Assembly: GCA_016212275.1 (NCBI GenBank)
Contig: JACRGR010000017.1
Coordinates: 25,316 to 89,315, forward strand
Direction: 5' to 3'
DNA length: 64,000 nucleotides
Origin: Nitrospinota bacterium
Lineage (GTDB): Bacteria; Nitrospinota_A; UBA7883; JACRGQ01
Every line of letters starts with the position of its first letter. Position 1 is the stretch's first letter. A program made the position numbers and the translations under genes. The notes under the pieces are model-generated. The model saw nothing but the letters and a program-made list of their open reading frames with translations. It was not told where the DNA came from and did not search any database. This document shows, in pieces, positions 9,830-10,204 of this stretch.

Positions 9830-10204
9830 ATGAAAAACGTTCTTAACTCCAATGGGGGGTTTACTCTCATTGAACTTGTGGTCGTCATTGTGATTCTGGG
9901 GATACTTTCTGTTTCCGCTTATAATGCGTACAGTGATCTAAAACCTGATGCGCAGTTGTCCGCTCTGAAAGGTATTGCGGGTGAAATTTCTGTAGCGTCA
10001 AAAATCAATTACGCTAAACGTAGTATCAATTCTTCAGCCGGTTTCCCGAGCCTCGATTGTGTGGATGTCTTGGCGTTTGTGCATATCTCCGCCAAATACG
10101 TTGTTGGTTCGTCGGCTTTAACTCCTGGAATGCTGTCCCAATGTTCCGTCGTCGATTCTGAAAGTGGGAAATCTGCCTTATTCGATGCTTGGTATGTTCT
10201 CTAA
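9830..10204 (+). CDS. Type IV prepilin/pseudopilin-like protein with a class III signal (…NGGFTLIELVVVIVILGIL…)
   Basis: It carries the canonical G|FTLIEL prepilin peptidase motif followed by a hydrophobic helix. It sits inside the phage structural gene block. Confidence 0.55.
   Translation: MKNVLNSNGGFTLIELVVVIVILGILSVSAYNAYSDLKPDAQLSALKGIAGEISVASKINYAKRSINSSAGFPSLDCVDVLAFVHISAKYVVGSSALTPGMLSQCSVVDSESGKSALFDAWYVL

Follow-up and report, generated by a model that had tools for sequence, protein, structure and literature searches.

We detected a type IV pilin gene within the late operon of a filamentous phage. The DNA analyzed is a stretch of 64,000 nucleotides (nt) from a Nitrospinota bacterium (assembly GCA_016212275.1, contig JACRGR010000017.1, positions 25,316 to 89,315 of the forward strand), called the window below, and the gene in question lies at positions 9830-10204 of it. 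We are highly confident that it encodes an intact type IVa (T4a) major pilin of the small MshA/PilA5-like kind and that it is an accessory gene of an inovirus prophage in a Nitrospinae metagenome-assembled genome (MAG). This prophage is 7.3 kb long, has no secretin and is integrated at a dif-like site, and the gene is part of its late operon (pilin-p58-pIII-pVI-pI). The gene is intact and pilin-like throughout, it is resident in the phage, and it is placed for co-expression with the pIII, pVI and pI genes.

An intact type IV prepilin gene in an inovirus late operon

The open reading frame (ORF) at 9830-10204 was identified by ORF reading and by Pfam and TIGRFAM matches. It is read on the forward strand from ATG at 9830 to TAA at 10202-10204 and encodes 124 amino acids (aa), and an AAGGA ribosome-binding site is located 8-12 nt 5' of the ATG. 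The N-terminus of the product reads MKNVLNSNGG followed by FTLIELVVVIVILGIL. The 10-residue leader, MKNVLNSNGG, ends in Gly at -1, with Phe at +1, Glu at +5 and the hydrophobic alpha1-N helix after it, and cleavage by prepilin peptidase is predicted between G10 and F11. The Pfam model PF07963 (N_methyl), with a gathering score of 21.2, matches at 35.2 bits (E 7.5e-9), and TIGR02532, with a cut-off of 16.3, at 32.9 bits; this is the sole class III signal among the products of the 64-kb window. ATG 9830 was preferred as the start because of the ribosome-binding site and the typical 10-residue T4a leader. The upstream TTG at 9752, giving a 150-aa version, was rejected, since it would cross both hairpins of the preceding spacer and produce a 36-residue leader. 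An identical protein, annotated as prepilin-type, is present in public deposits from a Nitrospinae/Nitrospinota MAG, where its contig measures 146 kb.

The AlphaFold2 model of the prepilin has a mean pLDDT of 91.3, with an N-terminal helix at residues 13-66, a short helix and three strands. The predicted fold follows the pilin layout, in which a long N-terminal helix is packed on a C-terminal beta-sheet domain.

A search with the prepilin against 5.8e9 sequences matched 6143 proteins at E<=1e-3. The best non-self matches (E~1e-17) are proteins of 118-130 aa with 37-49% identity over 79-100% of the query, and many of them are named 'MSHA pilin protein MshA' by JGI. In an alignment of 35 sequences, G10, F11, T12, E15, G24, N60, C77 and C105 are invariant, and C77 and C105 form the cysteine pair of the C-terminal domain, conserved in 35/35. 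The original prediction of a prepilin with a peptidase motif is thus borne out, with Gly-1 and Glu+5 present here and conserved in the homologues (35/35). The profile built from this alignment, compared with solved structures, found MshA as the best match (9lab_B, 2.2e-22, over the N-terminal 62 residues) and the Thermus narrow-pilus pilin PilA5 (8qqj, 6xxe) over its full length, positions 8-110, at 5e-17. PilE, PAK pilin and others were matched more weakly. The similarity therefore extends beyond a generic transmembrane helix, with best matches over 79-100% of the length and a profile that matches a solved pilin, PilA5, end to end.

The genomic context was examined for four homologues (P0005, P0009, P0016, P0092). 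All four genes directly follow an mshB-like pilin gene, in operons that hold MshE (MshEN and T2SSE domains) and MshG (T2SSF); a DUF6701/MshQ protein is encoded downstream in three of the four, and one operon also includes a secretin, an AAA_22 protein and a TPR protein. Because all four contexts are MSHA operons, the homologue family was assigned as the major pilin of MSHA-type T4a pili. The phage gene itself is outside any msh operon context, its neighbors being the phage coat, p58 and pIII genes. The label 'pseudopilin', suggested originally, was not retained. Type II secretion system (T2SS) pseudopilin models match the first ~20-36 residues of the prepilin only, with scores far under their cut-offs (GspH, 22.4 bits against 80; GspG, 21.3 against 88.85; GspJ, 20.4 against 64.85), and a T2SS pseudopilin identity was rejected on these grounds, the full-length kin being MshA-type pilins in MSHA operons. 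By its sequence, the phage gene looks like a captured MSHA major pilin and not a T2SS pseudopilin.

The prophage genes span 6.4-13.9 kb of the window. Likeness of the element's ends to dif was scored against the E. coli dif site, at least 19/28 matches being found in 0.05% of random 61-nt windows. The features of the element are listed below; L071 and L072 are the two relatives of this phage.

6491-6512 and 13829-13850: 22-nt exact repeat bounding the 7.3-kb element
6484-6511: attL, dif-like 28-mer (minus-strand match to E. coli dif, 20/28), holding most of the repeat copy 6491-6512
6398-6808, reverse strand: XRE-type repressor (HTH_3, 1.3e-13), its frame crossing attL into host DNA
6837-7316, reverse strand: DUF2726 protein (88.7 bits), accessory, common to L071
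7680-8081: 133-aa ORF 5' of Rep, no family match
8084-9397, forward strand: replication initiator Rep, 437 aa, homologue of the L072 Rep (3.3e-41), which has a weak Rep_trans match
9394-9516, forward strand: 40-aa hydrophobic protein, pVII/pIX-like by position and size only, no family match
9513-9734, forward strand: probable major coat protein precursor, 73 aa, with a homologue in L072; it has a hydrophobic core, and its signal peptide, acidic N-terminus and basic C-terminus are typical of such proteins
9737-9771 and 9777-9796, forward strand: two stable hairpins in the 95-nt spacer from the coat stop to the pilin start (minimum free energy -36.1 kcal/mol, z -2.7)
9830-10204, forward strand: prepilin gene
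10204-10380, forward strand: p58, 58-aa small membrane protein with a hydrophobic segment and basic C-terminus, no family match
10377-11786, forward strand: pIII-like minor coat/adsorption protein, 469 aa, with a Sec signal, Gly-Ser-Thr linker and C-terminal anchor
11789-12118, forward strand: pVI-like minor coat protein, 109 aa (phrog_306, Ace-like, 2.6e-7; DUF2523 below cut-off), with a homologue in L071
12115-13284, forward strand: pI/Zot assembly ATPase, the inovirus hallmark (PF05707, 86 bits against 20.3; phrog_197, 1.2e-37)
13822-13849: attR, dif-like 28-mer (18/28 to E. coli dif), holding most of the repeat copy 13829-13850

The pilin gene is flanked by the major coat gene upstream and the pIII-like gene downstream, so that its reported position in the inovirus structural block is correct. 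It is well within the element, at 3.3 kb from attL and 3.6 kb from attR. The gene junctions are tight: pilin and p58 overlap by 1 nt (TAATG), p58 and pIII by 4 nt (ATGA), pIII and pVI are separated by a 2-nt gap, and pVI and pI overlap by 4 nt. The two hairpins upstream are probably an attenuator or terminator parting the high expression of the coat gene from the distal operon, by analogy with Ff phages, and no promoter-like site was called in the spacer upstream of the pilin gene. The GC content at third codon positions (GC3) of the pilin gene is 0.42 and its codon log-likelihood is +0.34 toward the phage model, compared with +0.38 to +0.52 for pIII, pVI and pI; six host genes have GC3 of 0.66-0.80 and codon scores of -0.12 to -0.35. 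This phage-like codon usage indicates that the pilin gene is a long-term resident of the late operon and not a recent pick-up from this host.

Window positions 151-11130 were recovered with 100% identity in a Logan assembly of run SRR12113407, from the host flank through the pilin gene into the pIII repeat. Because this independent assembly is identical, the arrangement is not an artefact of binning or assembly. The location of the gene within the phage rather than in flanking host DNA, as proposed originally, is thereby upheld by the 22-nt repeats on both sides, the phage GC content and codons, and the Logan assembly. The Logan assembly itself breaks within the pIII triplet repeat.

The 7.3-kb element has defined ends and the gene order Rep - coat - pIII - pVI - pI, an order also seen in L072, and besides the pilin the full canonical virion gene set is present (coat, pVII/IX-like, pIII, pVI, pI and Rep). 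GC content is 0.35-0.49 inside the element and 0.55-0.62 outside, and the GC skew switches sign at about 12-14 kb. The 28-mers of attL and attR agree in their central part and in one arm, the second arm being different. These dif-like ends and the GC skew sign change fit Xer-mediated integration at the terminus, and the prophage is probably located at the chromosomal dif/terminus via XerCD, like CTXphi-type phages. A scan of phage ORFs turned up no integrase. The original statement that the phage has no secretin of its own also stands, no Secretin domain being detected in any prophage ORF; the ORFs longer than 250 aa are Rep, pIII and pI only.

Some of the other phage proteins were assigned at lower scores or have unusual features. 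PF05356 (Coat_B) matches the 73-aa coat precursor at 16.8 bits, under the 23.5 cut-off. No PHROG family was found for p58, the 40-aa ORF or two minus-strand ORFs at 13281-13757, and p58 has no similarity to pVI or to the protein that L072 encodes between its coat and pIII genes. The C-terminal part of the pIII-like protein is homologous to that of L071. Residues 243-323 of this protein (window 11047-11392) form an unbroken run of 27 Gly-X-Y triplets, most of them Gly-Ser-Thr and repeating every 9 nt in the DNA, which score as a collagen triple-helix repeat (PF01391, 7.8e-14); the pIII of Ff phages has Gly-rich linkers at the corresponding place. The last ~38 codons of the XRE repressor are supplied by the att site and host DNA. 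The ORF at 7680-8081 stands where the ssDNA-binding protein is usually encoded. Its GC3 of 0.72 and codon score of -0.20 are host-like, unlike those of all other phage genes. A 24-nt element (CCCTTACCCC...GGGGGG, 83% identical) is present at 8215-8238, in the 5' part of the Rep gene, and at 9759-9782, in the hairpin spacer; it could be a replication or packaging signal.

Outside the prophage, a second mobile element was detected at window 41696-64000, after tRNA-Glu and tRNA-Gly, with GC content dipping to 0.49. Its genes encode a tyrosine integrase, D12 adenine methyltransferase, HNH/Phg_2220_C, PAPS-reductase-like, ParM-like actin, OmpA-like and thioredoxin-like proteins, TraK and TraB/TrbI. 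It is probably an integrative conjugative element (ICE).

Divergence of the phage pilin and rarity of its carrier

The phage pilin is the most divergent of the 35 aligned sequences, with a mean identity of 0.40 to the other 34, compared with 0.47-0.58 among those, a comparison partly biased by the choice of the aligned set by similarity to the phage pilin. Of 37 alignment columns with a conservation of 85% or more, it keeps 32 and departs at five. The most striking departure is Asn at position 32 of the precursor (position 22 of the mature protein); the other 34/34 sequences have Pro there. Pro22 and Gly14 flank the segment that melts when a T4a pilin enters the filament (PMC5059446). Every published structure of a bacterial T4a pilus conserves Pro22, a residue described as essential to pilus assembly in N. 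meningitidis (PMC10710030).

Among 310 class III leaders from the fetched loci, the closest to MKNVLNSNGG (window 9830-9859) is MKNHINNNKG (10001-10030 of locus L121), with 6/10 residues identical in register, most other leaders scoring 1-2. The pilin with this leader is encoded in the T4a cluster of a Nitrospinaceae MAG, together with MshEN-T2SSE, PilS/PilR-like genes, T2SSF and a Wzy_C-type gene. The likeness of the leaders hints that the N-terminus of the phage pilin may be tuned to, or derived from, the host lineage, and the cluster of this MAG shows that T4a pili occur in Nitrospinaceae.

The pilin had no match by tblastn in 50,697 deposited phage genomes (INPHARED) at E<=0.01, nor at E<=10. 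A generic T4a pilin query of the same set found seven large records, which are cyanophage S-CAM7 and Acinetobacter and Salmonella records resembling bacterial contigs; none of the seven is an inovirus. A scan of IMG/VR with the pilin alignment detected 56 loci with a similar pilin N-terminus, 0 with Zot within 8 kb and 0 with homologues of the other proteins of this phage. The corresponding GTDB scan detected 80 loci with MshA-like pilins, with Zot within 10 kb in locus L123 only. A class III signal was found in 0/11 distant Zot loci from IMG/VR, GTDB genomes and JGI metagenomes. Literature searches found no description of an inovirus or filamentous-phage pilin. The main text of the inovirus survey of Roux (2019) is silent on pilins, and its supplement has one three-member family, 'Pilin', under 'Other'. 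The earlier view that inoviruses are not known to encode pilins is thus supported by INPHARED, the 56 IMG/VR loci, the 11 Zot loci and L072, with the 'Pilin' family of that supplement to be noted.

Locus L123 was considered as a second pilin-bearing inovirus and rejected, its pilin gene lying ~600 bp outside an integrase-type prophage, in DNA of host GC content. The locus (MAG Ideonella sp., NZ_JBIKNQ010000002.1) has at 1-10400 a complete integrase-type inovirus with its own secretin, directly upstream of host MSHA pilin genes. The mshB-like gene beside the prophage encodes QG/FGLMEL and has no start codon, so the insertion may have disrupted it; the mshA-like gene is ~600 bp past a putative att repeat, whose copies at 66-86 and 9357-9377 are 86% identical. 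Such an arrangement is a plausible route for mshA capture by an inovirus.

The phage lineage is almost unsampled, with two relatives. A word-index search with pI returned only pI itself. The exhaustive phmmer search of 1.84e9 representative proteins gave 472 matches, only two of them close (P0122, 38%; P0123, 31%), and the Rep alignment had no match in IMG/VR. L071 is a partial prophage with the DUF2726 neighbor, joined to the host at a dif-like site of the same kind (~2632-2667, 25/28 identical); its contig ends just upstream of the pIII C-terminus, before the slot that follows the coat gene. The L072 prophage (6.8 kb) is complete, secretin-less and without a pilin. The product of its slot between coat and pIII (2894-3433) is 179 aa long and has no family match; a Sec signal, a PPPPPP linker, several cysteines and a membrane anchor at the C-terminus were recognized in it. 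Since L072 has a different gene in it, the slot appears to be variable, and the pilin is accessory in this lineage.

Possible roles of the phage pilin

We tentatively propose, with a probability of roughly 0.4, that the phage pilin is processed by the host PilD and interferes with the host pilus, leading to receptor masking or superinfection exclusion. The pilin gene would be co-expressed with the virion-export genes and the prepilin would insert into the inner membrane, where the host prepilin peptidase PilD would cut after Gly10 and methylate Phe1. The mature phage pilin would then enter the host type IV pilus (T4P) assembly platform and remodel or poison the pilus, which would no longer be an entry receptor, and the phage-producing cell would thereby be shielded from superinfection and from other pilus-specific phages. 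A poison or altered subunit is proposed because Phe1 and Glu5, the residues of subunit docking, are kept and Pro22 is lost. Filamentous vibriophages use MSHA type IV pili as receptors (PMC9532999), and inoviruses are described to block T4P against superinfection, for instance Pf4 (PMC11436027). The T4a pilus cluster of the Nitrospinaceae MAG, with its pilin leader close to that of the phage, also fits the proposal.

Several observations weigh against this proposal. The TCP and Tad pilins, which have no Pro22, still polymerize, with a continuous helix (PMC10710030), and the loss of Pro22 is no proof of an assembly defect. No PilD, secretin, T4P or T2SS genes were detected among the 30 large ORFs of the 64-kb window, and the conjugative pilus of the ICE (41.7-64 kb) is an equally possible receptor for the inovirus. 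To our knowledge, the known inovirus exclusion factors (PfsE, pIII) are not pilins. The pilin gene is carried by one phage only, in one metagenome. No pilin acting in exclusion was found in the review of superinfection exclusion (PMC11436027) or in a literature search for phage-encoded pilins.

The phage pilin could alternatively be cargo of lysogenic conversion, that is, an alternative major pilin in functional host pili that alters their adhesion or antigenicity (attachment, aggregation, biofilm) and has no direct role in the phage cycle. The intact, confidently predicted fold and the retention of all processing and docking residues are in agreement with such a role, as is the placement of the pilin family phrog_3433 by PHROGs under 'moron, auxiliary metabolic gene and host takeover' and the annotation of a pilin in the cyanophage S-CAM7 record. 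However, morons are generally known to carry their own promoter and terminator at module borders, whereas this gene is inside the late operon with no promoter-like site called, and the missing Pro22, otherwise invariant in the family, speaks against a T4a subunit that polymerizes normally, so that we regard the cargo role as doubtful.

A role of the pilin in virion egress is suggested by the missing secretin gene of the prophage: because the phage has no pIV, it is expected to exit through a host secretin. The phage pilin would engage the host platform or build a pilus-like stub, opening or aligning a gated host secretin (T4P, MSHA or T2SS) for the virion. The pilin gene is packed tightly with the export and termination genes p58, pIII, pVI and pI, and a secretin is encoded within the MSHA operon of one homologue. 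We nevertheless consider an egress aid unlikely, since secretin-less inoviruses such as CTXphi and MDAphi use host secretins and are not known to have a pilin for this, the secretin-less relative L072 has no pilin, and 0/11 other Zot loci have a class III signal. A specific form of it, to which we give a slightly lower probability still, is a pilus mimic for exit, in which a few PilD-processed copies at the assembly site or leading filament tip would imitate a growing T4P, engage the alignment complex and open the gated host secretin.

The high divergence of the pilin within the family alignment, the lost Pro22 and its presence in a single phage would also be expected of a functionless passenger, picked up by imprecise excision or recombination and drifting to loss; the L123 inovirus, ~600 bp from a host mshA-like gene, makes such a capture plausible. 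We find a passenger improbable, as the ORF is intact, 32/37 conserved columns are kept, both cysteines included, the predicted fold has a pLDDT of 91, the fully phage-like codon usage implies long residence without decay, and the junction with the next gene is shaped like a translationally coupled pair.

Even less probable, in our estimate, is a virion component, a few pilin copies capping or decorating one filament tip with alpha1-N among the coat helices. The gene is among virion genes, between coat and pIII, the L072 slot protein resembles a minor coat protein by its Sec signal and C-terminal anchor, and pilins and inovirus coat proteins are both generally known to be drawn from the inner membrane into helical filaments. 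Against this, the full set of tip proteins is already there, and the pilin lacks a basic end for DNA binding. It is not homologous to any structural family of inoviruses, and we know of no precedent.

An artefact, in which the pilin would be host sequence or an assembly chimera, is extremely improbable despite the source being a MAG, given the identical Logan assembly from the host flank through the pilin into pIII and the position of the gene deep inside the att repeats with phage-like composition.

Significance and comparison with known systems

Filamentous phages and type IV pili have three known ties: pili are the usual receptors, secretin-less phages exit via pilus or T2SS secretins, and both filaments are built similarly from inner-membrane helices. 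The pilin gene described here would be an accessory gene by which a phage acts on the pilus system, and inovirus genes of this type have not been described. If so, a major-pilin gene wired into an inovirus assembly operon would be a new phage action on the pilus machinery, either as a poison or decoy subunit masking the receptor or as a mimic opening the exit channel, and either role would extend the known pilus-targeting exclusion factors by a new class. Exit by pilus mimicry, if true, would connect inovirus extrusion directly with type IV pilus assembly at the level of mechanism. The prophage is also a record of an inovirus lineage of Nitrospinota that is very poorly sampled, with a pI at most 38% identical to any of 1.84 billion representative proteins.

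Among cellular pilins, MshA of the MSHA pilus, with kin of ~120 aa in Beta- and Gammaproteobacteria and other phyla, is the same as the phage pilin in size, class III signal and the two cysteines. It differs in that the cellular genes follow mshB and are accompanied by MshE, MshG and MshQ, whereas the phage gene is in a late operon and its product has no Pro22. PilA5 of the Thermus thermophilus narrow pilus is similarly minimal, with a mature pilin of 111 residues; it is chromosomally encoded and has Pro22, and its likeness to the phage pilin is at the family level only. With GspG, GspH and GspJ of the T2SS the phage pilin has the cleavage and methylation motif in common, but its globular domain is MshA-like.

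Pilus-directed phage genes offer a looser parallel. The exclusion protein of Pf4, which inactivates the T4P of P. aeruginosa (PMC8764522, as cited in PMC11436027), is an inovirus gene product aimed at the T4P against superinfection. It is a functional analogue only of the mechanism we propose; this protein, PfsE, is reportedly a ~30-aa peptide that binds the platform protein PilC and not a pilin. The pilin-like morons of tailed phages (phrog_3433, S-CAM7) are, like the phage pilin, phage-borne with a class III N-terminus. They differ in that the match covers the N-terminal ~50 residues only, and that their carriers are large tailed phages with these genes outside the morphogenesis operon.

Similar in overall organization are phages of the CTXphi and MDAphi type, which like the window prophage encode Rep, coat, pIII, pVI and Zot in a small genome with dif-like flanks and have neither pIV nor an integrase. 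CTXphi and MDAphi integrate at dif via XerCD and exit through host secretins. We know of no secretin-less inovirus of this type that has been described as pilin-encoding. We know of only one earlier proposal connecting a type IV pilin gene to the genome of a filamentous phage, that of VPIphi, for which the pilin TcpA was reportedly claimed to be the coat of a filamentous phage (Karaolis, 1999), a claim said to have been disputed later. The two cases differ in the part given to the pilin: in VPIphi it was proposed as the coat itself, whereas the phage of the window has a probable coat gene of the canonical pVIII type beside its pilin gene.

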